This document shows, piece after piece, positions 1,390-58,905 of a stretch of 64,000 bases of DNA (position 1 is its first letter; each line of letters opens with the position of its first letter). Origin of the DNA: Patescibacteria group bacterium (GTDB taxonomy: Bacteria; Patescibacteriota; Microgenomatia; Daviesbacterales; UBA10151). The notes beneath the pieces were generated by a model. It did not search any database. It saw nothing but the letters and a program-made list of their open reading frames with translations, and had not been told where the DNA came from. Where the stretch lies: NCBI GenBank assembly GCA_023379125.1, contig JAMCSY010000011.1:5333-69332 (forward strand). Reading direction: 5' to 3'. The position numbers and the translations under genes are program-made.

Positions 1390-3074
1390 TGAAAGTTTCT
1401 ATTAGCTGGTTAAAGGAATTGGTCAAACTTGATAACTCTATCCAGCAAGTTGAGCACCTACTACCCTTAAGAACTATTGGAACCAAAGAAATCGACGAGA
1501 ATTTTTTTGAGCTGGATATGAAAGGCTATAACCGCAGTGATCTACTGTCCATGCGTGGAGTTGCTTATGAAATCGCCGCTATCACCGATGCCACAGTTAC
1601 CTTTAGCGAGACTTTGGACCAAGATTTTATCTGGTCAAACAAAAATTTACCACAAGTTAATGTTGAGGTTTTAGACCCTGACTTAGTCCCTGTCTACGCC
1701 ATTGCCAAGATTGAGGGTCTTGAGGTACAAAACACTCCATCCAATTCAGACTCCGCTAAACAACTTACAGATTGTGGAATGAGGGCAATTAATAATGTGG
1801 TAGATGTGACAAATCTAGTGATGCTGGAATATGGCCAACCTTTACATGCTTTTGATGCTAAGTCAGTCCAGGATGAAAAAATTATTGTCCGTCTAGCCCA
1901 TCCTCAAGAAAAATTGACTACCCTTGATCATAAAGAAAGAGTCCTGGAAAAAACTGATCTTTTGATTTGTGACCCAGCTAAAGCTTTGGGAGTAGCAGGA
2001 GTGATGGGGGGAGCAAATAGTGAGATTTCAGATTCACCATGCACAATTTTGCTTGAGGCAGCCATTTTTGATCCAGTGAAGATTAGGCAAACCTCGCAAA
2101 GACTTGGCCTACCATCTGAAGCCAGCAAAAGATTTCAGCATGGTTTAACTAAAACCAGATTACTTCAAGCTTTAGATGAAGCTATTAGGCAATATCAGGA
2201 TCTAGGTGGTAGACTGACTGCTTTAGCCATTGTTTCTAATTATGAGGACCAGGTTAAACAAGTACATTTGTCCCAGGCAAAAACTAACTCTCTAATTGGA
2301 GTAGTCATAACCAGTCAGCAGATCGAAGATTATTTAGCAAAATTACATTTTAAACTAAAAGTAACTTCAGCAGGTAATTGGGAAGTTAATGTACCTTATT
2401 GGAGATTAGATATCGAGATCGAGGAGGATTTAGTTGAGGAGGTAGCCAGAATGTATGGGTATGAAAATATTCCAGCTCAGCATCTACCTAATTTAAAACT
2501 TAACACTTTAGATCAGACTGATTTAAGAAAAATTGATCAGCTAAAACAAGAGACTGTGACACAGGGTTTAACAGAAATTATGACTTATTCATATTTTACC
2601 AGTGAGGTAATTAATAATCTCCACATTAATCAAGACAGTTTGGTCAAAATTGCTAACCCCATGTCTGCCCAAACAGAATATTTAAGAACAAGACTTTGGC
2701 CAAATTTATTGGAAAAAGCTGCAGAAAATTTAAAAGAAAGAGACAGTTTAGCCATTTTTGAAATTGGTAAAACATACCATCCACAAAACCAGGGTGTACC
2801 CAAAGAGAAAAAAACTTTAGGGATTTTACTGGTTAACCAAACAAATAACCCCTTGGCTGAACTAATCACCATTATCAAACAAATTCCCAGCTTAGTTGAT
2901 CTTACGGTTGAGCAGATTAGTGCAGATAAGAATTTTCATCCCCAGCGCTACTTACAAATTAAAAATAATAGGGGAGAGGTGATTGGTCTGGCTGGAGAAA
3001 TTCATCCCAGAGTAGTTAATCAGTTTGGAGCTGAAAAACGAATTGCAATTATGGAAATTTCTTTAGATGATTAA
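1389..3074 (+). CDS. pheT: Phenylalanyl-tRNA synthetase beta subunit (short form, 561 aa)
   Basis: Bacterial-type N-terminus MKVSISWLKELV; B3/4 and B5-like regions; immediately downstream of and translationally coupled to pheS; about 240 aa shorter than typical bacterial PheT. Confidence 0.8.
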   Translation: MKVSISWLKELVKLDNSIQQVEHLLPLRTIGTKEIDENFFELDMKGYNRSDLLSMRGVAYEIAAITDATVTFSETLDQDFIWSNKNLPQVNVEVLDPDLVPVYAIAKIEGLEVQNTPSNSDSAKQLTDCGMRAINNVVDVTNLVMLEYGQPLHAFDAKSVQDEKIIVRLAHPQEKLTTLDHKERVLEKTDLLICDPAKALGVAGVMGGANSEISDSPCTILLEAAIFDPVKIRQTSQRLGLPSEASKRFQHGLTKTRLLQALDEAIRQYQDLGGRLTALAIVSNYEDQVKQVHLSQAKTNSLIGVVITSQQIEDYLAKLHFKLKVTSAGNWEVNVPYWRLDIEIEEDLVEEVARMYGYENIPAQHLPNLKLNTLDQTDLRKIDQLKQETVTQGLTEIMTYSYFTSEVINNLHINQDSLVKIANPMSAQTEYLRTRLWPNLLEKAAENLKERDSLAIFEIGKTYHPQNQGVPKEKKTLGILLVNQTNNPLAELITIIKQIPSLVDLTVEQISADKNFHPQRYLQIKNNRGEVIGLAGEIHPRVVNQFGAEKRIAIMEISLDD

Positions 3075-3514
3075 CTAGCCTTTCGAACTGGATCAGAGCT
3101 ACTAGAGCCTTGAGAATCTTCCTGAAAAGCTTTGCCTGATAAAACCGGGTCCAGAATATCATCAAGCTTTCTTCGGTCAGTTACTTCTCTAAATCCATGA
3201 CGTCCAACTCTGACAGTTTTTTTACTAGTCTCTTGTGTAATTTCATCATAAATCTCTTTATGGTCAGACTCTAGTCGATCGTAGAATCCACTAAGTGCTT
3301 CTTTGTATTCCGCTTCAGTTCTCAATTTACCTGTTACATACCTGGCTGCAATATTCTGTAGTTGTAAGAATGCTACTTGTCTTGCAGTTAGCTCTCCGCT
3401 TTCTATTTTCTGCAAGTTACTATTAATGAATCTGCGAGCCAATACTACTCTTTCATCGTCGGACCCAGTAATTATTGTAGAATCCATGGGGTGTGACTTT
3501 GCTTCTGGGCTCAT
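3071..3514 (-). CDS. Hypothetical protein (147 aa, charged, no recognisable motif)
   Basis: ORF only; overlaps pheT stop by 4 nt; family-1 repeat lies directly upstream of it. Confidence 0.4.
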   Translation of the reverse strand: MSPEAKSHPMDSTIITGSDDERVVLARRFINSNLQKIESGELTARQVAFLQLQNIAARYVTGKLRTEAEYKEALSGFYDRLESDHKEIYDEITQETSKKTVRVGRHGFREVTDRRKLDDILDPVLSGKAFQEDSQGSSSSDPVRKAS

Positions 3515-3597
3515 AGTTTGGATAATTATACTACCTTAAATTTAGTTGTCAATTAAAATTTTGTAAGAAACTATCAACAGTCCAGATAACGATTTTT

Positions 3598-3746
3598 ATA
3601 AGCTTGCGCAGACTAAAAACCTGCGGTTTTCTCAGCTTATTCAAGCTTTCAACCGCTTCATCACTAATTCAGCAAAAAGCTTGAAACCTTGCTTCGTCTA
3701 CATCACCTGCACTAAAAAGTGTGGGGTTTTAACGAAGCGGTTATAA
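3598..3746. repeat. Structured intergenic repeat, family 1, copy 1 (begins ..TTTATAAGCTT, ends ..ACGAAGCGGTTATAA)
   Basis: About 75-80% identical to copies at 11578-11721 and 47087-47244. Contains the hairpin CGCAG-N9-CTGCG and an outer stem CTTCGT..ACGAAG. Its 3' end overlaps the PBP stop codon. Confidence 0.7.
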
Positions 3747-11572: not shown

Positions 11573-11577
11573 AATTT

Positions 11578-11721
11578 ATAAGCTTCCCCAGACTGAAAAG
11601 TCCGGGGTTTTTCTCTGGCTAGCTTTCAAGCGCTTCGCTACCCGTTTGCCGGTAAAGCTTGAAGCCTACTTCGTCTACATCCACGAGCTGAGAGCTCGTG
11701 GTTTTGACGAAGCGGTTATAA
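11578..11721. repeat. Structured intergenic repeat, family 1, copy 2
   Basis: Contains the GNRA-loop hairpin CCCCAGACU-GAAA-AGUCCGGGG. A nested hairpin CCACGAGCU-GAGA-AGCUCGUGG is enclosed by the outer stem CTTCGTC..GACGAAG. Lies in the divergent region between the ABC exporter and tyrS. Confidence 0.7.
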
Positions 11722-11796
11722 TCATACCAAATATATCCCAAAATTAATTCCAAAACAGTCTGTGATTATAAGCATTTTTAGGATATAATCATAAAC

Positions 11797-13021: not shown

Positions 13022-13039
13022 TAAAAGTATAATGCCCTC

Positions 13040-31404: not shown

Positions 31405-31435
31405 TTTCTTAGAAAGATAAGTAGTAGAGAAGAAA

Positions 31436-31858
31436 TTACTGAGCGTTCCTCTTACAGAACCAGTTTCCAGAAGTAGTAGCACCCCCACCCACACTAGTGG
31501 TTGCATTACCTGTTGAGTTTTCCAGTGAAGCACAGAAAACAAAGCCATTAGAAGAATTAAATGAGGTAGCATAATTAGCACCACCAGGAGAAGGATTAGT
31601 TGGTACTGTTTGATCAGAAAACCAAGTCCCGTTTAATGATGTTGGATAACCAGAACCAGAAACATAATTGGCTTCCATTGCTCCAGCCATGGATTGAATA
31701 TCAGCCTTTCTTTTGGCATCTCGCGCTTTATTTAAAGTTCCAGTATAAATAGTAATCCCGATAATACCTAAGATTGCCAAGATTGAAATAACAACTAACA
31801 GCTCAAAAAGTGTAAAACCTTGAGAGTTATTTTTAGTTCTAGGCAAAAATTTTGACAT
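31436..31858 (-). CDS. Type IV pilin, tandem paralog A
   Basis: Preferred start MSKFLPRTKNNSQG|FTLFELLVVISILAILGIIG (the ORF-track start at 31930 overlaps paralog B); C-terminal Cys pair; Ser/Thr-rich segment with NST/NAT. Confidence 0.7.
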   Translation of the reverse strand: MSKFLPRTKNNSQGFTLFELLVVISILAILGIIGITIYTGTLNKARDAKRKADIQSMAGAMEANYVSGSGYPTSLNGTWFSDQTVPTNPSPGGANYATSFNSSNGFVFCASLENSTGNATTSVGGGATTSGNWFCKRNAQ

Positions 31859-31859
31859 A

Positions 31860-32282
31860 TTATTGTGCATTCCTCTTACAATACCAATTACCAGAAGTAG
31901 TAGCACCTCCACCAACACTGGTAGTAGCATTACCTGTTGAATTCTCTAGTGAAGCACAGAAAACAAAACCACTCGAAGTATTAAAAGAAGTCGCATATGT
32001 GGCACCACCAGGAGAAGGATTAGTTGGAACTGTTTGATCAGAGAACCAAGTAGCATTTAACGATGTTGGGTAACCAGAACCAGAAACATAATTAGCTTCC
32101 ATAGCTCCAGCCATTGCTTCTATATCTGCTTTTCTCTTAGCATCTCGAGCTTTATTCAAAGTTCCAGTATAAATAGTAATACCAATAATACCTAATATTG
32201 CTAATATAGAGATTACTACCAAAAGTTCGAAAAGTGTAAAACCTTGAGGATTTGAATTTGTCTTGGGCAGTAGCTTTTTCAT
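31860..32282 (-). CDS. Type IV pilin, tandem paralog B (about 90% identical to A)
   Basis: Preferred start MKKLLPKTNSNPQG|FTLFELLVVISILAILGIIG; the mature N-terminal about 45 aa are identical to A. Confidence 0.7.
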   Translation of the reverse strand: MKKLLPKTNSNPQGFTLFELLVVISILAILGIIGITIYTGTLNKARDAKRKADIEAMAGAMEANYVSGSGYPTSLNATWFSDQTVPTNPSPGGATYATSFNTSSGFVFCASLENSTGNATTSVGGGATTSGNWYCKRNAQ

Positions 32283-32323
32283 TTCTTGATCTATATTTAC
32301 TTTTGCATAACTAAAATATCTTG

Positions 32324-33250
32324 TCAAGAACCAATTTTCAGGCTAGTAATATACCAATTTATTATTTTTGCACCAAATAACAAAGCAGTAAAAGCACCCA
32401 AACTCAGGAAAGGACCAAAGGGAATTGTTTGCCCAAAATGTCTCTTTTTAAAAGCCATCAGCAGCAAAGCAATCACTGCACCGCTAATAAACGCCAAAAA
32501 GATAGCTAAGACTATATTAGGATAACCAAGTGCCAAGCCTAGTAGAAAAACATACTTAACGTCACCCCAACCCATCCCACGCCCTCTTGTGATTACAATT
32601 AGGAAAAAGAAAACGAGAGCTGAAATTACTGCTGCACCTAGGCTCCAAGCAGCATCCATCACAATTCTTTGGATATTATCAGTCAGGTAAGCAGAGTAGG
32701 GAGGCATCAAGTATTTTCCAAAAGGAATCAAAACTACTTCGTGATAAAAATTCCAAGAAACTAAAACCGTAGTTAAAATTAGATATATCAGAGAAATAAT
32801 CATAGCTGGATAAGTAATTCGATCAGGTATTATTCCCAATTTCAAGTCAGTCAAAAAGATAATTGCTAAAACTGTGACGATGAAACACCTAAATAGTAGG
32901 TCAATTAAAAGTAATAAATGTGGGATATCGGCAATAAAAATTTGCTCTAGGTGAGTAGGTAAGGTCGCTAAAAAAACCAAGGCAATCAGTATACCCATTA
33001 CTAATTCAGCTAAAAAATTACCCAGAGGGATTTTTCGATGACAAAACCGGCAGTGTCCACGCAGGATTAAAAAGGAGAAGACAGGGAAAAGGTCGTACCA
33101 TCTAAGCGTTTTTTTGCAACTTTGACAATACGACCTTTTTTTAAATGATACCTTTTCCTGGATCCGATCAGAGGTTGCTTTAGCAAAGCTTCCTAAAATC
33201 GTTCCCAGAACAAAACCCAGTAGCCACATCTTAAACCCTATTGTATCCAA
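32324..33250 (-). CDS. pilD: Prepilin peptidase (A24 family)
   Basis: 308 aa; N-terminal CxxC..CxxC (CQSCKK..CRFCHRK), about 8 TM segments, A24 architecture. Confidence 0.8.
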   Translation of the reverse strand: MDTIGFKMWLLGFVLGTILGSFAKATSDRIQEKVSFKKRSYCQSCKKTLRWYDLFPVFSFLILRGHCRFCHRKIPLGNFLAELVMGILIALVFLATLPTHLEQIFIADIPHLLLLIDLLFRCFIVTVLAIIFLTDLKLGIIPDRITYPAMIISLIYLILTTVLVSWNFYHEVVLIPFGKYLMPPYSAYLTDNIQRIVMDAAWSLGAAVISALVFFFLIVITRGRGMGWGDVKYVFLLGLALGYPNIVLAIFLAFISGAVIALLLMAFKKRHFGQTIPFGPFLSLGAFTALLFGAKIINWYITSLKIGS

Positions 33251-33892: not shown

Positions 33893-34113
33893 AGTTAGTA
33901 GTTCATAGATCGGCTGAACTATGAACTGCAAATAATGAACTTATTACTAATCTTATTGTTGACATAGCTGAAAGTTTTAGTCAAGTGTTTAACTTATTTA
34001 AATACATACCTAATATTATGAGTTTAGTAACATTACTTTCAACAAGAAGATACCGCGCTAACGTCAGCCAGTGGTAGATTCTTTGTTGACATAGCTGAAA
34101 GTTTTAGTCAAGT
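33893..34113. promoter_or_regulatory. Pilin upstream control region: two copies of TTGTTGACATAGCTGAAAGTTTTAGTCAAGT (inverted half-sites TTGAC-N16-GTCAA) plus a cluster of GTTCAT/ATGAAC half-sites
   Basis: Exact 31-bp direct repeat at 33956-33986 and 34083-34113; GTTCATA x2 and ATGAAC x2 between 33893 and 33950; located 100-260 bp upstream of the pilin start at 33851. Confidence 0.5.
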
Positions 34114-34132
34114 CCTTTAGTTTTAGCAAAAC

Positions 34133-35341
34133 TTACTGAATATTAGTAGTGAGCTGGTAAATGGGCAAAATAATTGATATCACTAAAAAGGCCACCCCCA
34201 CACCCAAGATTACTAAGATGATAGGTTCAATTAAGGTTGTTACATTTTTAAGTTGATTATCTGACTCTGTCTCAAAATAGTTTGCCAATCTGATCATAAT
34301 CTCATCAATTTTACCAGTCTCTTCGCCAGTCTTAATCATTTGTCCCACAATCCTTGGAAATACTGGCATAGCCAGTATTTGGCTAGAAAGAGTTAAACCA
34401 CGTTCAACTCCTTTATATGCTGTTTCTAAACCACTTTGAAAAACACTATTTCCTACAATTTCTCCGACAATTTTAATTGATTCCAAAATCGGAATGCCAG
34501 AAGAAGCAAGTAAGCCAAAAGTACGAGTAAAATTGGTTAGCGTTACTAAAGTAACAATCCGTCCAACTACAGGCAGTTTGAGAACGACTGTATCATATTG
34601 ATATTTACCGCTCGGAGATTTGATATAACGGCGAAAAGTTAAGATCCCTACCACTAAAATAAGCAGAATTATCCACCAGTAAGTCAACATGAAGTTAGTG
34701 AAGGCAAGCAATATTTTGGTCGGTAGTGGTAAATCTAAGCCAGAATCTGTATAAAGATTCATCAGCTTAGGCATCACGAAAAAGATCATAATCAGCATCA
34801 CACCAGCCATCATCAACAACACAACGATTGGATAAATCATGGCTCCTCTGATTTTGCTACGGAATTCACGATCTTTCTCCAAGTTATCAGCAAGTTGCAA
34901 AAGTACAGTATCCAACTTACCGGAGGCTTGACCAGCTCTGACTAATTTACTATAGAGTTTAGGAAATACCTCTGGGTATTTTTCCAGGGAAGTCGCAAAA
35001 TCCATTCCACCTTTGACATCATTAGATATTTCACCAATAATTTTCTGAAAGTTCTTGTCAGACTGCTGCTCTTGTAAAATATCCAGAGCTTCAGAAAGCA
35101 CTAAGCCTGCTTCTACCATCGTGGCTAACTGCCTGGTAAAAACCACCACATCTGAATAAGCCACTTTGGAGAAAAACTTTTCAACAAAATTATCTTTATT
35201 AGTATTTTTAACTTTCAGTGAAATCACAATTAATTTTTTGCGGCGGAGGAGGGTAGCCGCTTGACGATCATCGGTAGTCTCAATTTCTCCTTTGTGATAA
35301 CTGCCAGTCAAGTCTTTGGCAATGTAATTAAATATCGGCAT
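34133..35341 (-). CDS. pilC: Type IV pilus inner-membrane platform protein PilC (GspF family)
   Basis: 402 aa; two GspF repeats, 3-4 TM segments. Confidence 0.8.
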   Translation of the reverse strand: MPIFNYIAKDLTGSYHKGEIETTDDRQAATLLRRKKLIVISLKVKNTNKDNFVEKFFSKVAYSDVVVFTRQLATMVEAGLVLSEALDILQEQQSDKNFQKIIGEISNDVKGGMDFATSLEKYPEVFPKLYSKLVRAGQASGKLDTVLLQLADNLEKDREFRSKIRGAMIYPIVVLLMMAGVMLIMIFFVMPKLMNLYTDSGLDLPLPTKILLAFTNFMLTYWWIILLILVVGILTFRRYIKSPSGKYQYDTVVLKLPVVGRIVTLVTLTNFTRTFGLLASSGIPILESIKIVGEIVGNSVFQSGLETAYKGVERGLTLSSQILAMPVFPRIVGQMIKTGEETGKIDEIMIRLANYFETESDNQLKNVTTLIEPIILVILGVGVAFLVISIILPIYQLTTNIQ

Positions 35342-46374: not shown

Positions 46375-46590
46375 ATGAAGCGTTTTGAAAGGTATGTTGC
46401 TGCCTTTTTTATTAGTTATTTTTTCATTGGATTGCTTTTTGCTAGCCTTTATGCTCTGTTTTACCATTGGAGTGCTTTTTCCTTTTTTAGCCCTGGATTC
46501 TACATGGTTTTACTAACCTGGCCAGCTCAGCTACCCGGTTTTTTTGCTGATTTTCAATATTATGGTTTTGCTGGAAAAACTTTGCCCTAA
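46375..46590 (+). CDS. Small hydrophobic protein (71 aa, 2 TM, Phe/Tyr-rich)
   Basis: ORF only. Confidence 0.3.
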   Translation: MKRFERYVAAFFISYFFIGLLFASLYALFYHWSAFSFFSPGFYMVLLTWPAQLPGFFADFQYYGFAGKTLP

Positions 46591-46612
46591 ATAGTCCAAA
46601 AAAACTGGCTTT

Positions 46613-46894
46613 TTGACTCTTTTTGTGCTACAATTAAAGCCCTTGAGAAAGAAAACTTCTACTAAACATCCTGCCAAGATTTGTGCTGAGTGTGGCAGTG
46701 AACTAATTTTTGTGGAAGAAATCACTATGACAGTTGGCAACGCCCTTTCTCCAGTTACCAAAACTATTTATCATTGTTCTAATCAAACCTGTCAGGAAGA
46801 ATCAGAAAGAAAAGAAGCTCAGCGACGTGAGTTTAGACTACAGCAAGAAACTTTAAAACAAAATCGCCTCAACAACCGTCACAGTACTAAATGA
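46613..46894 (+). CDS. Small zinc-ribbon protein (CAECGSEL..CSNQTCQEE) with basic C-terminus
   Basis: 93 aa; CxxC..CxxxC. Confidence 0.35.
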   Translation: MTLFVLQLKPLRKKTSTKHPAKICAECGSELIFVEEITMTVGNALSPVTKTIYHCSNQTCQEESERKEAQRREFRLQQETLKQNRLNNRHSTK

Positions 46895-47086
46895 ATCCCT
46901 TCCCGCCGTAAACAACTGGGTATCCCTAAAAGGGAAAGTTCTTTCGAGCGTTCATCCACACGGTAAGCCGCAAGGTATTCTCGCCCAAAATAAAGTTCCC
47001 AATCCACACCTTCTGCGAATTTTATACATTTCCCTGCTCTATAAATAAAAGCATGGTAAAGATTTCGCACACTAAAGGTCTGCGCA

Positions 47087-47244
47087 GTTTTGACGAAGCG
47101 GTTATAAGCTTTCCAGACTGAAAGTCCGGGGTTTCCTCTGGCTAGCTTTCAAGCGCTTCGCTACCCGTTTGCCAGTAAAACTTGAAACCTACTTCGTCTA
47201 CATCCACGAGCTCTCAGCTCGTGGTTTTGACGAAGCGGTTATAA
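47087..47244. repeat. Structured intergenic repeat, family 1, copy 3, preceded by a duplicated 20-nt 3'-terminal segment TTTTGACGAAGCGGTTATAA
   Basis: Full copy is about 90% identical to copy 2. The 20-mer occurs at 47087-47107 and again at 47225-47244. Lies 8 bp upstream of nfo. Confidence 0.7.
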
Positions 47245-47251
47245 TAAACTC

Positions 47252-48133: not shown

Positions 48134-48961
48134 ATGAATGAGGCTGTTTCCCATCGAGATCAGATCTTAGGATATTCACGACAAGCTTATCAGGATTTAC
48201 AAAGTTGGTGGCAACTGCTGAGTAGATCTCTACCTGACCACAAACTACTTTGTCAGATTGCTGAGCACAATTATAGTGATGACGTGATTGCATCAACTTT
48301 TCGTCGAGCTAGTCCAACTACGATTCTACTGGAGACAGAATTTAGTGAGATTGCTGGCCCACTTTTTAATCGCCCGGTGAGAACATTTGATACTGCTATA
48401 CTTTACAGGGTAACTCCAGAGTGCAATTTCACGCACAATTTTGGTGTTTATTCCTTATATTTTCTCCCTCTTAATAAAAGGCATGTCGCAAGAGATCAGG
48501 ATTGTGAGTACGTCAGGTTAGCAGCAGGCTATCCATTTCATCATCTTTCATTGACTTTAGGTGAAGGTATGGATCAACTACGCTCGCTTGATGTTCGCTT
48601 ACGCAGTAGTCGACCCACTGAAAATGTCAGAACATTACAAATTTCTCTAGATAGTGACTCTGTTTGGACTATTGTCCAAACTGCTAGAGACAATACATAT
48701 TTTAAAAACCCATTAGACCACAAACTTCAAGACAGAGCCTCTAGTCACCGACCATCCCAACGTTTTTCTTATCAGCATCTAGCCTATGAGCACTTGTGTT
48801 CATTTGGGTATGACCGTAGTAATTACCTCAGAATGAGCCCGTGGCAAGATCTTTTATTTCCTAACAAATTCTATTCCTTTTGTCCTTATCCTGGATTTAA
48901 TGTTGGGGAAGCAATTATCAGAGCCTGTCACTTTCAGTCAGCCATCAAGCCAGCTCCCTAG
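48134..48961 (+). CDS. Hypothetical protein (275 aa; Arg/His-rich, apparently higher GC than neighbours)
   Basis: ORF only; composition differs from flanking genes by eye; convergent with recombinase. Confidence 0.35.
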   Translation: MNEAVSHRDQILGYSRQAYQDLQSWWQLLSRSLPDHKLLCQIAEHNYSDDVIASTFRRASPTTILLETEFSEIAGPLFNRPVRTFDTAILYRVTPECNFTHNFGVYSLYFLPLNKRHVARDQDCEYVRLAAGYPFHHLSLTLGEGMDQLRSLDVRLRSSRPTENVRTLQISLDSDSVWTIVQTARDNTYFKNPLDHKLQDRASSHRPSQRFSYQHLAYEHLCSFGYDRSNYLRMSPWQDLLFPNKFYSFCPYPGFNVGEAIIRACHFQSAIKPAP

Positions 48962-49884
48962 CTAATCTTCTTGATATTCCCTGAATGGAAAGCTTTATGG
49001 ATATCCTTTAAGTGTCTGTTGGTAACATGGGTGTAGATTTGAGTTGTGGCAATATTACTGTGCCCAAGCATTTCTTGAACTGATCTAATATCTGCTCCAT
49101 TAATCAGCAAATCTGTGGCAAATGAATGTCTAAGGGTATGGGGGGTTGCCTTTATTGATAACCCTACTGCTTTAACATATTTTTCTACGATTCTTTCGAT
49201 TGAGCGGGGAGTGAGTCTCATTTTTTCACCATTGTCTTCTGAATTTTCCTTTCCTTGAAACCTAATGAAAAGTGGTTGATATGGATCATGCCTACCATGT
49301 AGATACTCACCCAACCACTTTAAAGCTGAATCAGATAAAAATACTACTCTCTCTTTGGAACCTTTACCTATCACACTAAACTCAGTCCGGTTTAAATTAA
49401 TAGTGTCTCTATTCAGGCTAGCTAGTTCCGAAACCCTTAAACCAGTGGAAAAGAGTAATTCTAACAAAGCCCGGTCACGCAATCCCGCTTTGTCTAGCAC
49501 ATCTGGCGCTTCAAGCAATTTCTGCAATGCGTCTTCATCGAGTACTTTAATAGGGGAGGCTTCTGTTTCACCTAACTCCACTTTTTCTGCCGAGAGACTG
49601 TTGATATCGTGCCTGGCTAGATACCGGAGAAATGCCCTTAATGCAATCATAAAATAGTTTTGAGTCACTCTCTTGAGAGGCTTTTTTGTTTCTGGATCAA
49701 CGAATCTTCCCAAGTAAAGACGATATTTTCTGACTAGCCCCAAATCAATCTTATTTGGCTCGATATCCCCAGCAAAACCTAAAAATCTTTTTAAATAGTG
49801 ATCGTAATTTTGAATTGTTTTTTGCGAGGCATTACGTTCAATTTCTAAATATTCAAGGAAATCAGTGATGGATGAAGAGATCAT
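48958..49884 (-). CDS. Tyrosine recombinase XerC/XerD family
   Basis: 308 aa; N-terminal SAM-like domain; catalytic R..HTLRHSFAT..GHSNIATTQIYTHV. Confidence 0.8.
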   Translation of the reverse strand: MISSSITDFLEYLEIERNASQKTIQNYDHYLKRFLGFAGDIEPNKIDLGLVRKYRLYLGRFVDPETKKPLKRVTQNYFMIALRAFLRYLARHDINSLSAEKVELGETEASPIKVLDEDALQKLLEAPDVLDKAGLRDRALLELLFSTGLRVSELASLNRDTINLNRTEFSVIGKGSKERVVFLSDSALKWLGEYLHGRHDPYQPLFIRFQGKENSEDNGEKMRLTPRSIERIVEKYVKAVGLSIKATPHTLRHSFATDLLINGADIRSVQEMLGHSNIATTQIYTHVTNRHLKDIHKAFHSGNIKKIS

Positions 49885-51218: not shown

Positions 51219-52445
51219 CTAGCTATTTCTTCTTACGATACAGTGTAGTTTTTATAATCTGTAGTTGTCAACAGTTTTTGGCATATTTTTTGCAGTTATG
51301 CAAACTAAATAGGGAAGTGTCTAAATCAAGACTTACAAGATCATCAAAATATAATCTCCAATCACGCGTTGCTTAATTCATAAACAACTAGGTAGTTGAC
51401 AACTTATGTTGGAATCAAACTTTAATATTGTGCGACATCGAGAATTTTTATTTATAATCTTACAAACGGCTTTTAAAAACCAAAAATGTTCAAGAAATCA
51501 GGTCTAAGTTAAACATAGTGAAAAAGATCAAAATATAATATTGCGTAATAGCACTAGTTAAAACGACTTTAGTACAAAGAGCGCACATCTTTTAAAACCC
51601 AACAACTAAACCTCAGCTAAATAGTTTTTCTGCTTTAGTCAATACAATCCTAAGAAGAATGTACAAATCAAGTTCTTTACACAATCAGCCATCCTAACCT
51701 ATTTTATCCAAAATAAGACTCCTAGAGGTATTTAGCCTCGAGGCCCGTAAAGGCCCCTAAAACGGCTGGAAACGGGGGAAGATGACTAGTTAGTCATCTA
51801 TAGATTAGACTGTCTCAAAGCCCTAAGTGTTAATTTTAAGAAGTTATTAATAGAGGGGCAAAAATTATCGAAAAAAATTGATAGGAAATTAGTAAAAATA
51901 GGTACAGGTTTATTAAACTTACAAAATTAATTATTTTTTATTAAATACTTTTTTAAAGCAAGTTGACCACTTCTCCGGCTACTAGGCATATACGTCGTCG
52001 TATAAGGTACATTGTGCGACATACTAGTTGGGAAGGCTTGACCCCTCTGAAGAGAGAATGGCCTCTTAATTGAGAAAACAATAAGACGGTGAGGCTAACT
52101 CACTCATGCTACATACATATCTGTGTACCACTACTAGGACTCTCCTCTCAGTAACTATACCTATAGTTTTCACGCGTGGAAACAACTTTGGGTTTTTTAT
52201 AGCAGAGAAATGTAAGAGAGTACTCTGCTCTTGGGTGTGATTGCTTTTATCATGCTCCACGAGCTACACCATATTTTATATTTTCTGGCCTCCAATAATA
52301 CCCTATAATTCTTAGTTATCCACAGTGTACTAACTATATCAGACTGTATCAACTATATTATAGGCTTATAATATTAGCACTCTTCCCTACCTTGTGTTAA
52401 CCTATTATTTTTTGGGTTATCAAATTGTTAACTAAACTACTAAGC

Positions 52446-52625
52446 CTATCCCACCCAAGAGGTTGTGATATGAGCTAAAGCTCTATCACTTTCAGGATAT
52501 GAGCTAAAGCTCTATCACTTTCAGGATATGAGCTAAAGCTCTATCACTTTCAGGATATGAGCTAAAGCTCTATCACTTTCAGGATATGAGCTAAAGCTCT
52601 ATCCCGCCCAAGAGGTTGTGATATA
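52446..52625. repeat. Perfect tandem array: 29-bp unit ATATGAGCTAAAGCTCTATCACTTTCAGG x4 plus a 21-bp partial unit, flanked on both sides by CTATCCC(A/G)CCCAAGAGGTTGTGATAT
   Basis: Direct reading; units at 52468, 52497, 52526, 52555 and partial at 52584; no intervening spacers. Confidence 0.85.
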
Positions 52626-53961: not shown

Positions 53962-54669
53962 CTAGCTTGTTACCCCAGTTAAGTGACCATCTGGATGATA
54001 ATCAGGTACAAACGCAAAATCATCTTTTATCAGCCTATATCCATTTTGCACCGAGGAGGCATCTGATATCGTCTCAATTCTGTAGGAAGACTTACTAAGA
54101 TGTTTTCTTAACTTGGAAGCATAAACTCTTAGCGAATCATCGATCTCTTCTATCCCCCAAGTAGGCCAGATGTGTTGGCGAAAATCTCTTTTGCTGACCT
54201 TTATTCCTGGACTTTGCCAAAGTCTGTACAATATTTTCATCTCAGTTAAGTCAAGATCTAATCCTTGCACTCCTAAACCATAACCAATTCTAGTTTTTGA
54301 AAAAATTGCTGTCGGCAACTCGTGACCTCTGTTTATTTTACAGATGTATAGGGAGACAGCGCAGCGAGCATTACGGGAGACGTCTCCTCGAGAGCAAGAT
54401 ACTACCAAACGATCTTTTGAAACAAGATAACCTGCATGTTTACCTAACAGTAAAACAAGAGCATCTTTAATTCGCAATTCCTGTGATCTATCGCTTAGGT
54501 GGATTGATTGTTCAGCCAAGGAACCTATTTCTGCACTATTGGCTGCTCTGGACATCAAGCCTATTTCGTGTAACCATTCTTGGTAACAAGGGTCTAGATG
54601 AGGAGCCTCCTGAATATTATGAAACCGATTAATTATTCTCTCAAACTCTACCGACTGCATCTTCAGCAA
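53962..54669 (-). CDS. Protein with C-terminal OmpR/PhoB-type winged-helix DNA-binding domain and a non-receiver N-domain
   Basis: 235 aa; C-terminal LYRLWQSPGIKVSKRDFRQHIWPTWGIEEIDDSLRVYASKLRKHL resembles trans_reg_C; TTG or internal ATG start. Confidence 0.45.
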   Translation of the reverse strand: MLKMQSVEFERIINRFHNIQEAPHLDPCYQEWLHEIGLMSRAANSAEIGSLAEQSIHLSDRSQELRIKDALVLLLGKHAGYLVSKDRLVVSCSRGDVSRNARCAVSLYICKINRGHELPTAIFSKTRIGYGLGVQGLDLDLTEMKILYRLWQSPGIKVSKRDFRQHIWPTWGIEEIDDSLRVYASKLRKHLSKSSYRIETISDASSVQNGYRLIKDDFAFVPDYHPDGHLTGVTS

Positions 54670-54674
54670 TTTTT

Positions 54675-54806
54675 AAATGAAGCTCCACGGCCTAACGGCC
54701 GTGGTATCCTCTCAGCTTCACAGCTTTAGCTGTGATAATTTAAGCATTCATCCATTTTCCAACGAGCATGGTTTTCTGCTTTCGCTGATAAATATCCCAG
54801 GTTGCT
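54675..54806. repeat. Structured intergenic repeat, family 2, copy A
   Basis: About 85% identical to 58655-58786. Hairpins CCACGGCC-TAAC-GGCCGTGG and TCACAGCT-TT-AGCTGTGA. Lies between the yebC stop and the 53962-54669 start. Confidence 0.7.
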
Positions 54807-54830: not shown

Positions 54831-55613
54831 TCAAAGGATATTTTCTGGAATATCAAAATTAGCAAAAACTTTTTGAATATCATCTTGGTCTTCTAATTTC
54901 TCGGTAAAATCTAATATTTTTTGGGCTATTTCTTTATCATTAATCTGCATAGTAGTTGTAGGTTTAAACACTAACCCAGATTCCTCTACCGCAAAGCCAG
55001 ATTGAGTAATCTTATTACCCATAGTATATAGTTCTGGGCCTTCTACATAGATTAAATACTTATTCTCACCCTCTTCTGTAAAAGCATCAACATCCTCTGC
55101 TCCCAAATCAATTAGCTCCAGCATCTCATCATCTACCTCTCCACCTTTGCCCTTTACTTCATCTACCTCTCCACCTTTGCCCTTTACTTTTAATTCTCCC
55201 TTTCTTTCAAACATATAAGCTACACTTCCTTGCCCTCCCAAAGCCCCTCCACTGTGTTCAAACAGGCTTTTGACTATTTGGTTGGTTCTTAACTTATTAT
55301 CTGTCACACCTTCCACCAAAAAGGCTACTCTACCAGGACCAAAACCCTCATATAAAACTTCTTCAAGTGTTTGGCCAGGTAAATTACCCAGACCGCGATC
55401 AATAGCTCGCTGGACATTTTCCTTAGGCATATTTATCTTGCGGGCTTCTTCTAAAGCCTCACGCAGGCGAGGATTTGTATTTGGATCACCCGAATTACCC
55501 AATCTAGTGGCAATAGTGATGGCATTGGCAATTTTCGTAAACATCATCCCACGTTTAACATCAGCCACACCTTTTTGTCTTTTAATTTGCGCCCATTTTG
55601 AATGTCCCGACAT
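54831..55613 (-). CDS. yebC: YebC/PmpR-family transcriptional regulator with in-frame 10-aa tandem duplication
   Basis: 260 aa; MSGHSKWAQIKRQKG..MFTKIANAITIA; VKGKGGEVDE x2 is encoded by a 30-bp direct DNA repeat at 55128-55187. Confidence 0.85.
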   Translation of the reverse strand: MSGHSKWAQIKRQKGVADVKRGMMFTKIANAITIATRLGNSGDPNTNPRLREALEEARKINMPKENVQRAIDRGLGNLPGQTLEEVLYEGFGPGRVAFLVEGVTDNKLRTNQIVKSLFEHSGGALGGQGSVAYMFERKGELKVKGKGGEVDEVKGKGGEVDDEMLELIDLGAEDVDAFTEEGENKYLIYVEGPELYTMGNKITQSGFAVEESGLVFKPTTTMQINDKEIAQKILDFTEKLEDQDDIQKVFANFDIPENIL

Positions 55614-55763
55614 ATTGTTACTCCTAAATTACATTCAAAAAGAAGCGTATTAGCGATTCATTTTGAATGACCTGACTTATATTCCCCTCCTTTGAAATGA
55701 CGTTCAAAAGAGGTGCTTCAGCAACTCATTTTGAATGTCCCGACATATTGTTACTCCTAAATT
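55594..55763 (-). promoter_or_regulatory. Reiterated yebC translation-initiation region: three copies of TCATTTTGAATG(A/T)CC(T/C)GAC; the distal copy (55727-55763) equals RBS + ATG + the first 6 codons
   Basis: On the mRNA strand AATTTAGGAGTAACAATATGTCGGGACATTCAAAATGA gives MSGHSK-stop. The true gene has TGG (Trp) in place of TGA. Confidence 0.5.
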
Positions 55764-57494: not shown

Positions 57495-58610
57495 TTATCT
57501 GTTAGAGTGATCTGTATAAAAATCCTCACCGAGAATGATTGTAATATCCGCGCGATTGAGATCAACAGCTTCACCTAACTTGCCAGAAATTATATCACAA
57601 CTACCCTGATTAGCTGAGAAAAATAGACTACTAGAACGCTGCAAACAGCTTGGCCGAAATGCTTGAGTGGCTCTCTGCTTAGTCCAGCTTTGTTTGCCTA
57701 GTATCAAAGTATTTGCTAAATCATCCTGGCTGTTGGCAGTAAAAATCACCCGTCCTCCTAAATTAGTAATCACCCGAGCGGCTTGTTCAGCTAGTAATGG
57801 ATGAGCAGTGGAGTTATAAATTCCCACAGTCAAACCTTCTTGTTCAATCTGATTATCATACATATGAGCCATCACGTACTGATCAGTAACTGATTGTTTG
57901 AGACTCAATACACGACTACCGTCAGCCAGAACTTGCCAATTGGTAGCTTCACTTGATTGCAAATCAAGATTATCAACTTTGTCACTTCGAATTGAGCTCA
58001 AAACATGTGCTAGTTTCACAAGCTCGACCAAACTAAGATCTGTCTTGCTTTGCTGTATTAAATTCAAACTATCCCAGGGTGATTTACGAATCCTATCTAA
58101 CATTTCACTCACCGGAGTCTGAGATAAATCCTCGGTAAAAATTAAATAACCGTCAACAGGTATGGCCAAATTTAAAGCCAGAGTTTCTTTCAGCAACTGT
58201 GCTCCCATGGGAGGTTTTTCATCTTGACCCAAGCCATAAATACTGCTCACCAACCACTGACCAAAACCATGTGGTAAATCAAGATAGGCTTTATCAGGAA
58301 CAGTAATAATAGTGGCAGCTTTATCAATAGGGTTAACTGAGACTAGATAAATCTGATCACTTTTGATAGCTAAATTAATTGTGTTTGTGCCATTCCAACT
58401 GTAATATTTATCTACTGGCAGGGCATCAGGAGCATAAGGTTGTCCTAAACCCACAATAAAACTAATTAGCTTACCAATAATAATCAGCAAAACCACTAAA
58501 CCTAGGGCAAATAAGCCTAAGCCCAGTTTACTGCGCGAGGAAGACGAACGACGAATACTTTTCCTTTTATTAACTTTTTTTAAGACGGATCTAGCCATAC
58601 TAATTCTCAC
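57495..58610 (-). CDS. LytR-CpsA-Psr (LCP) family cell-envelope phosphotransferase
   Basis: 371 aa; N-terminal basic tail + TM; NTINLAIKSDQIYLVSVNPIDKAATIITVPDKAYLD resembles LCP core. Confidence 0.65.
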   Translation of the reverse strand: MRISMARSVLKKVNKRKSIRRSSSSRSKLGLGLFALGLVVLLIIIGKLISFIVGLGQPYAPDALPVDKYYSWNGTNTINLAIKSDQIYLVSVNPIDKAATIITVPDKAYLDLPHGFGQWLVSSIYGLGQDEKPPMGAQLLKETLALNLAIPVDGYLIFTEDLSQTPVSEMLDRIRKSPWDSLNLIQQSKTDLSLVELVKLAHVLSSIRSDKVDNLDLQSSEATNWQVLADGSRVLSLKQSVTDQYVMAHMYDNQIEQEGLTVGIYNSTAHPLLAEQAARVITNLGGRVIFTANSQDDLANTLILGKQSWTKQRATQAFRPSCLQRSSSLFFSANQGSCDIISGKLGEAVDLNRADITIILGEDFYTDHSNR

Positions 58611-58654: not shown

Positions 58655-58786
58655 AATGAAGCTCCATAGCCTAACGGCTAGGTATCTTCTCAGCTTCACA
58701 GCTAAAGCTGCTGATTGAAAGCATTTATCCATGTTCCAACAAGCATGGTTTTCTGTTCTCGCTCATAAAATTATTCCCAAGGTTGC
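58655..58786. repeat. Structured intergenic repeat, family 2, copy B
   Basis: Hairpin TAGCC-TAAC-GGCTA, with CG to TA compensatory changes relative to copy A. Sits immediately upstream of the LCP gene. Confidence 0.7.
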
Positions 58787-58905
58787 TTTTTCTTACCAAC
58801 AATTTGTGGGGGCGTAAAAACAGGAGCACTGGAAAACTTGACCGGTTGCTCACCTTTTTTCTTTTTTTTCTTTTCCCCTTTAAAATATGATCCAAAACCT
58901 GCCAT
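58771..58905 (-). CDS. Possible small Lys-rich protein (44 aa, MAGFGSYFKGEKKKKKKGEQPVKFSSAPVFTPPQIVGKKKQPWE)
   Basis: Strong SD GGAGGTGGTGA 4 nt upstream of ATG; not in ORF track (short). Confidence 0.3.
   Translation of the reverse strand: MAGFGSYFKGEKKKKKKGEQPVKFSSAPVFTPPQIVGKKKQPWE

Follow-up and report, generated by a model that had tools for sequence, protein, structure and literature searches.

The approximately 145-bp non-coding repeats of this Candidatus Daviesbacteria genome are a previously undescribed family, and we consider it probable that the family is MITE-like, non-autonomous mobile DNA of Candidatus Daviesbacteria and related Microgenomates; most likely it is a fresh instance of a familiar type of element and not a novel RNA gene. 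Mobile DNA was preferred over an RNA gene because of seven observations, namely a copy inside an open reading frame, contig breaks inside the repeat, the short spacer that relatives have at the site of copy 3, the patchy distribution, the A·C mismatches in the stems, a flipped hairpin loop and the lack of database matches. The genomes of CPR bacteria (Patescibacteria) are small (about 1 Mb), dense and considered to contain little mobile DNA, and no description of such a repeat in CPR bacteria was found in the literature searched. A structured repeat that occurs about once per 20 kb, exactly at promoter boxes and the ends of genes, would supply regulatory change at little cost; in practice it also breaks assemblies of this lineage, and it offers a test case for promoter and terminator function in leaderless-style CPR units and for the type of enzyme that moves hairpin-ended elements. 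The interest of the family lies in its host, its targeting of promoter boxes and its terminator-like modules, and no new class of system is proposed.

Copies in the window and in metagenomes

The window, the 64-kb stretch of DNA analyzed here, is bacterial chromosome with about 39% G+C and carries housekeeping genes (PheS/PheT, a class A PBP, TyrRS, RecG, GyrA, endonuclease IV, RuvC and a XerC/D-like protein). Its GyrA shares 73-81% identity with the GyrA proteins of Candidatus Daviesbacteria MAGs, and the next relatives of its TyrRS are about 70% identical. As a separate observation, a related Daviesbacteria GyrA (1162 aa; L016, 49-3537) has an intein-like insertion near its N-terminus that the window GyrA (841 aa) lacks. 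The cumulative GC skew falls steadily across the window, which suggests a single replichore. In many genes of the window, a TATAAT-like box stands 6-10 nt ahead of the ATG and a Shine-Dalgarno sequence is missing (e.g., 3525-3530, 11783-11788, 13024-13029 and 47240-47245), a leaderless-style arrangement that suggests mostly leaderless or very short-leadered mRNAs in this Daviesbacteria genome.

A profile search of the window found three full copies and one orphan 3' end, all on the + strand, and nothing else; the three copies of about 145 bp sharing the termini TTATAAGCTT...ACGAAGCGGTTATAA that the preliminary description had reported were borne out. Copy 1 (3596-3746), with its TTATAA ends at 3596-3601 and 3741-3746, represents a divergent subfamily that is 68-69% identical to copies 2 and 3, as distant from them as are copies from other organisms. 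Copy 2 lies at 11576-11721. Copy 3, which is 90% identical to copy 2, had been placed at 47087-47244; the copy itself is real, but that range included the orphan end, and its proper extent is 47102-47244. The extra terminal 20-mer that had been noticed directly 5' of copy 3 was confirmed as the orphan 3' end of an older copy (GCGCAGTTTTGACGAAGCGGTTATAA) and was widened by profile homology to 28 nt (47080-47107, + strand), with its TTATAA (47102-47107) doubling as the left TTATAA of copy 3. The 3' 16-mer GACGAAGCGGTTATAA occurred five times in the window at ≤3 mismatches, against a chance expectation of 0.25, and one of these five matches is an inverted internal copy (3647-3662). The full copies are 143-153 bp long, under the 500 bp that bounds MITEs, and non-coding, with no reading frame common to the copies; as in MITEs, multiple dispersed copies lie in one genome (three copies and one remnant in 64 kb). 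On the + strand, a stop-free frame spans the element in six of the eight full copies (copies 1, 2 and 3, L003, L004 and L005), compared to about 0.3 per copy in shuffles; these frames are not homologous among the copies and are unexplained, and the copy within a gene (L006) is read on the - strand.

When metagenome contigs were scanned with the pattern CTTCGTC-N20-40-ACGAAGCGGTTATAA, six loci were obtained, five with full copies (L002-L006) and one with an internally deleted copy (L001), in which the deletion spans the interval between repeated CCGCGG segments. A covariance model found a 3' remnant of about 70 nt (L133). These seven additional members (five full, one internal deletion and one 3' remnant) all come from groundwater metagenomes, and 10 members of the family are known in total. 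The preliminary description had made its reading depend on the existence of further copies, and they do exist beyond the window. The invariance of the right end in the metagenomic copies is partly an artefact of the search pattern; copies 1-3, found independently of the pattern, show equal right-end conservation. By RpoB, the carrier of L005 falls in Daviesbacteria, and the PilO of L003 is 33% identical to the window PilO, while the L003 element is 66-69% identical to the window copies. The distribution was patchy, in that some 200 kb of sequence, drawn from 13 or more related Daviesbacteria genomes, held no full copy and one remnant, compared to three copies in the 64 kb of the window.

The same pattern gave no matches in contigs of GTDB representative genomes. 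A relaxed pattern gave 35 matches in IMG/VR, the best of which reached an nhmmer E-value of 0.014 over 60 positions; these were rejected as chance because none fits the element profile outside the searched motif. Plasmid and phage records showed no match to copy 2 (blastn). No Rfam family matched the element, either at gathering scores or at lax E-values up to 10, the only match in the window being tRNA-Tyr, and the lax searches returned only sub-threshold matches to terminator-like parts of small RNAs.

Conserved blocks and hairpins

The element is built of nearly invariant blocks that alternate with variable stems. Its first half runs (T)TATAA-RCTT, a hairpin (HP1), TTTTCT ... AAGYTTYAA-CCGCTTCG, and its second half runs CCNNGGAAGMYTG-WAACC ... 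CTTCGTCTRCAT, a hairpin (HP3) and TTTGACGAAGCGG-TTATAA. The blocks ATAA-RCTT, AACCGCTTCG, CTTCGTCTACAT and TTTGACGAAGCGGTTATAA are near-fixed, and the blocks are near identical even between copies that are 62-70% identical overall. The near-invariance of the blocks shows constraint, which we attribute to what the copies required for spreading.

Both HP1 and HP3 have a G+C-rich stem of 5-10 bp, a loop of 3-4 nt (reaching 9 nt in copy 1 and L004) and, after the stem, a run of three to five T. In copy 1, HP1 pairs CGCAG (3607-3611) with CTGCG (3621-3625) ahead of a T-run at 3627-3630, and HP3 (3706-3713/3718-3725) precedes a T-run at 3727-3730. In copy 2, HP1 (11586-11594/11599-11607) has the loop GAAA, one A·C mismatch and a T-run at 11608-11612, and HP3 (11681-11689/11693-11701) has the loop GAG and a T-run at 11702-11705. 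In copy 3, HP1 (47113-47119/47123-47129) has the loop GAA, and HP3 (47204-47212/47216-47224) has the loop CTC, inverted relative to copy 2. An outer stem CTTCGTC/GACGAAG had been described around an inner hairpin, and it is present in copies 2 (11669-11675/11706-11712) and 3 (47192-47198/47229-47235) and, as CTTCGT/ACGAAG (3692-3697/3732-3737), in copy 1, where, as in the others, the hairpin that it encloses has a sequence of its own. Because they show no variation, this stem and the stem AACC/GGTT are uninformative as to pairing.

The description of the loops did not hold up. What had been given as a 5' hairpin, CCACGAGCU-GAGA-AGCUCGUGG, is a faulty transcription of the 3' inner hairpin, which in the DNA is CCACGAGCT-GAG-AGCTCGTGG, with a 3-nt loop; the CTC of copy 3 is the reverse complement of this loop. 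GNRA loops, which had been claimed for the repeat, are not a trait of the family, because the GAAA tetraloop occurs only in the 5' hairpin of copy 2, while the HP1 loop is GAA in copy 3 and most metagenomic copies.

The view that structure is conserved over sequence was borne out for the two local hairpins. In a model-fitted alignment, 90% of the HP1 and HP3 cells pair, compared to 36-42% when the partners were slid by 1-3 columns; 9 of the 28 hairpin pairs, four of them in HP1 and five in HP3, were changed at both partners, G-C, U-A, A-U and C-G all occur at a single HP3 position across the copies, and none of 500 shuffles reached the covariation score. Fold energies were also well below those of shuffles (z = -3.9 to -7.4), equally for both strands, so that folding alone cannot choose a strand; single-hairpin energies ranged from -0.1 to -14.4 kcal/mol. 

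Both ends have inverted copies inside the element. The left end, ATAA-RCTTCCNNGG, matches the mid-element CCNNGGAAGYTT, and the right end, ACGAAGCGGTT, pairs with the internal AACCGCTTCGT (for copy 2, AAGCGCTTCG at 11628-11637). The pairing of the right end holds in 92% of cells with no variation; the pairing of the left end, AAGCTTCCCCGG, with the middle, CCGGGGAAGCTT, holds in 72% of cells with little covariation, one position having changed from C-G to G-C in three copies. On these figures the two long end-to-internal helices were rejected as conserved structure. The two helices cross each other and are in competition with HP1 and the stem enclosing HP3; the strand thus has several exclusive folds, none of which we claim. 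The terminal inverted repeat is weak: the two ends have TATAA and CTTC(S)(K)C in common and agree at about 11 of 15 positions once offset by 1-3 nt.

Such features might suggest that the repeat is not transposed but is a recombination site or repeat of another kind, such as a folded site resembling attC or Xer/dif, or a terminator module propagated by gene conversion. The palindromic TTATAA termini, the pairing of each end with an internal segment, by which the strand would fold back on itself, and the conservation of structure over sequence, as in attC sites, are in line with this, and a tyrosine recombinase gene lies at 48958-49884. However, that recombinase looks like an ordinary XerC/D-type enzyme and is unlinked to copies 1 and 2, the neighbors of the copies are core housekeeping genes and not cassettes, and the ends miss the attC core GTTRRRY, in that GTTATAA fails at two positions (attC: RYYYAAC ... 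GTTRRRY). Insertions inside an open reading frame and at unrelated sites fit transposition better, and we regard a recombination site as very improbable.

The preliminary description implied a family of structured RNAs, and the hairpins are the main argument for a host RNA, be it a family of small RNA genes or a leader or insulator acting in cis, whose fold would be kept by selection on the + transcript. The covariation of both hairpins, the fold-energy z-scores of -4.6 to -7.4 and the conserved blocks beside variable stems all agree with this; a hairpin followed by a T-run has the form of an intrinsic terminator, which would end a small RNA, and the 3' end can alternatively pair with three internal segments in a switch-like manner. 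On the other hand, HP1 and its T-run would stop the + transcript about 35 nt into the element, Rfam gave no match even at E-values up to 10, and decayed and truncated copies occur. The non-Watson-Crick cells of the stems also run the other way: RNA under selection should give more G·U than A·C, and on the + strand we counted 15 A·C and 7 G·U, an imbalance that is not significant. Furthermore, copy 2 has GAG and copy 3 has CTC as the HP3 loop, a flip of the loop between inverted repeats, which is an event at the DNA level. The copies have no common context (one follows a PBP gene, one separates the promoter of an ABC gene from its start, one precedes endonuclease IV and one is within an ORF), and the element is absent from close relatives and present in distant ones. 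Overall, these results do not support a family of structured RNAs and better fit a mobile DNA repeat in which the hairpins would serve its spread or its toleration, and we consider a host RNA quite unlikely.

As a separate observation, one A·C mismatch recurs at HP1 alignment columns 16/29 (11590/11603 in copy 2), where copies 2 and 3, L002 and L005 have A·C and L006 has G·T; the recurrent A·C mismatch would read G·U on the - strand.

As parts of probably mobile DNA, the hairpins still resemble intrinsic terminators on the + strand, with G+C-rich stems and T3-T5 runs, and like terminators they are free in stem sequence while the pairing, kept by covariation, and the T-run persist. They differ in that they are parts of a mobile repeat and not gene ends, and their T-runs are short (TTTTCT, TTTTGA). 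A simple consensus terminator scan flagged neither HP1 nor HP3.

Insertion sites, neighboring genes and orientation

TTATAA had been suggested as the insertion site or target, and the flanks support this. The left flank, which could be read in nine copies, is TATAA in seven (TTATAA in four of them), the two others having CATAA and AATAA. On the right, all full copies end in TTATAA, and copy 3 and the end of the older copy share one TTATAA. The flanks fit a target-site duplication of 4-6 bp and a fixed TTATAA end beside a TATAA target alike. Apart from element ends, the window has 21 TTATAA sites, five of which are intergenic, and all three insertions of the element are intergenic.

These ends, together with the position of the hairpins, raise the question of whether the element is an IS200/IS605 derivative ('PATE'), that is, single-stranded DNA moved by a Y1 HUH transposase for which the subterminal hairpins would be binding sites. 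It would then insert 3' of a TATAA-like target without duplication, its - strand would be the active one, and its transcript might serve as a TnpB guide-RNA scaffold. Subterminal hairpins at both ends without a convincing terminal inverted repeat are what such an element should have. HP1 begins 4 nt inside the left TTATAA and HP3 ends 14 nt inside the right TTATAA, so that, read on the - strand, the hairpins are 14 and 4 nt away from the boundaries with TTATAA, or 20 and 10 nt if measured from the outer ends; the hairpins of IS608 lie about 19 and 10 nt from its ends. The left-end hairpin is terminator-like, as in IS200, where the left-end hairpin is a known terminator, and copy 3 sits head-to-tail on the older end with one TTATAA in common. 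Three further points in its favor are qualified: the left-flank motif varies (TATAA, CATAA, AATAA) beside a fixed right end, but right-end invariance comes partly from ascertainment; all four window members have one orientation on what the falling GC skew suggests is a single replichore, but the orientation sample is three to four copies; and the stem mismatches favor pairing on the - strand, but 15 versus 7 is not significant. In contrast, HP1 is unlike HP3 in every copy, and within this one genome copy 1 has hairpins with no sequence relation to those of copies 2 and 3. The hairpins thus lack the likeness and conservation expected in IS200/IS605, because one transposase reading hairpin sequence would not allow such differences. 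The Watson-Crick stem around HP3 is foreign to IS608, and no Y1 transposase or TnpB gene was found in the window or the fetched loci. We therefore consider a PATE unlikely, and since the hairpin differences run against a defining feature of IS200/IS605, the element was filed as a non-autonomous, MITE-like element.

The copies lie at several kinds of site. Copy 1 is bordered on one side by the PBP1 stop codon (3741-3743), whose TAA the right TTATAA of the copy supplies, and on the other by the promoter of the ORF 3071-3514, a perfect TTGACA-16-TATAAT (3552-3525). The left end of copy 2 is 3 nt from the ATG of an ABC transporter gene (11572-11570, - strand), and its right flank together with the first T of TTATAA forms a TATGAT box for that gene on the - strand; as copy 2 lies between this box and the ATG, the leaderless-style ABC gene now has a 150-nt leader from the element's - strand. 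Copy 2 is also upstream of TyrRS, and a T-box or leader was considered for it and rejected, because the same element occurs in unrelated contexts. In copy 3, the terminal TTATAA and the next T make TATAAT (47240-47245), 6 nt before the ATG of endonuclease IV (47252), and the right ends of copy 3, L004 and L005 all make TATAAT 6-9 nt before an ATG. In L006, the copy lies within the gene for a 303-aa protein, where it lengthens a P/T-rich linker by exactly 138 bp (46 codons) without shifting the frame, and it is the - strand of the element that is read; the insert has no counterpart in any of the nine homologues found. When the L006 protein was used to search for element-derived peptides, only true homologues were recovered, none with the insert.

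At the site of copy 3, the small ORF that follows gyrA is separated from endonuclease IV by 5-12 nt in the relatives L014 and L022, compared to about 660 bp in the window. L016 has TTATGATAAACT before the ATG where the window has TTATAATAAACT, and because L016 keeps this motif, the right-boundary TTATAA(T) of copy 3 looks ancestral. Extra DNA (46591-47079), absent from L014 and L022, separates the conserved small ORF (46375-46590) from the orphan end and holds a 93-aa zinc-ribbon-like ORF (46613-46894) and a 76-codon open frame on the - strand. This frame was examined as a transposase remnant and rejected, with no homologue in 1.84 billion representative proteins and no Pfam match. We treat this DNA as context of the insertion site rather than as part of the element.

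Orientation followed the neighboring genes. Five members lie in the path of transcription of a neighboring or enclosing gene (copies 1 and 2, L003, L006 and the L133 remnant), and all five are antisense, which puts their hairpin-plus-T-run modules on the untranscribed strand. The sense copies (copy 3, L004 and L005) are exactly those whose right end abuts the next start codon. This pattern is what one would expect of selected one-way terminators and a rebuilt -10 box, a predicted function that rests on about eight cases. A bolder reading, which we hold to be improbable, is that the element is a mobile one-way transcription insulator, with two terminators on one strand and an outward -10 box at the right end, that rewires leaderless units and is perhaps moved as single-stranded DNA by an HUH enzyme reading the shape of the hairpins and not their sequence.

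Probable mobility, related element types and other repeats

Mobility of the DNA is further suggested by the state of the sites and copies. Short-read contigs of the same genome start inside the repeat (L007 in copy 3 and L008 in copy 2). Decay products are represented by the internal deletion of L001 and by 3' remnants, the window orphan and L133. Occupied and empty sites can be compared at low resolution, by the L006 insert and the copy 3 spacer described above. No near-identical empty site was found in sequence collections, where the nearest relatives are about 70% (TyrRS), 81% (GyrA) and about 86% (RpoB, L005 lineage) identical and lack synteny there; in three sequencing runs (SRR10278331, SRR10252151 and SRR10244963) the same genome turned up again, each time with the identical insertion. 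A Pfam search of the genes around the copies, of window 48.9-60.7 kb and of the metagenomic loci covered transposases; neither a transposase nor a longer element bounded by these ends came to light in the window or the fetched loci.

Taken together, we propose that a transposase acting in trans would insert the element at (T)TATAA-like, AT-rich sites, and that in this genome such sites would mostly be promoters and gene boundaries, leaving the element ends bracketed by (T)TATAA. The hairpins and blocks would be requirements of the mobilizing enzyme, and the hairpins may act as one-way transcription stops. Surviving copies would then be those that are antisense to crossing transcription, or those that are sense with a right end rebuilding TATAAT 6-9 nt before a start codon.

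Elements of this kind are well known, among them the Correia elements of Neisseria, RUP and BOX of pneumococci, enterobacterial ERIC and the Rickettsia palindromic elements (RPE). Like Correia, RUP, BOX and ERIC elements, the present repeat is about 100-150 bp long, non-coding, multi-copy, placed at gene boundaries and provided with stable stem-loops, has short AT-rich target flanks (TA for Correia elements) and may bring promoter-like and terminator-like signals to its neighbors. It shares no sequence similarity with them, its inverted repeat matches at about 11 of 15 positions compared to the 26 bp of Correia elements, it has two hairpin-plus-T-run modules and internal inverted copies of its ends, and its host is a CPR bacterium with a genome of about 1 Mb. 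RPE are short palindromic mobile repeats that can lie in frame within genes and be translated as an additional peptide, as is the L006 copy; here, however, only one of ten members lies in an ORF, the others being intergenic beside promoters, and sequences and hosts are unrelated. With IS200/IS605 and PATEs it has in common subterminal hairpins in place of long inverted repeats, an AT-rich penta- or hexanucleotide at the insertion point, a terminator-like left-end hairpin as in IS200 and one orientation in the window; it differs in hairpins that are mutually unlike and variable between copies, in the Watson-Crick stem around HP3 and in having no tnpA or tnpB in the window or fetched loci.

Other repeats were also observed in the window. 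A second structured repeat of about 130-150 nt has two copies about 85% identical (54672-54800 and 58655-58790), each just upstream (- strand) of an ORF (53962-54669, Trans_reg_C, and 57495-58610, LytR_C). Its hairpin, CCACGGCC-TAAC-GGCCGTGG in one copy and CCATAGCC-TAAC-GGCTAGG in the other, looks compensatory, and the repeat may be a common leader or a further repeat family. At 52438-52623, a 29-nt unit (GATATGAGCTAAAGCTCTATCACTTTCAG) stands in about five tandem copies, flanked by a 26-nt direct repeat, CTATCCC(A/G)CCCAAGAGGTTGTGATAT; the array is within the ORF-poor 51219-52598, at the edge of 1.4 kb with no ORF of at least 120 aa and no Rfam match. A 37-nt direct repeat without mismatch, part of a 43-nt repeat with 77% identity (55594-55630 and 55727-55763), duplicates the start region of a YebC/TACO1-family gene (54831-55613). 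Upstream of a pilin-like gene cluster, a 68-nt direct repeat that begins TTGTTGACATAGCTGAAAGTTTTAGTCAAG (33956-34023 and 34083-34150; 79% identical) may be a duplicated promoter region. Finally, a 300-nt direct repeat (31435-31734 and 31859-32158; 85% identical, 424 nt apart) spans two adjacent paralogous small ORFs (31436-31930 and 31860-32327).
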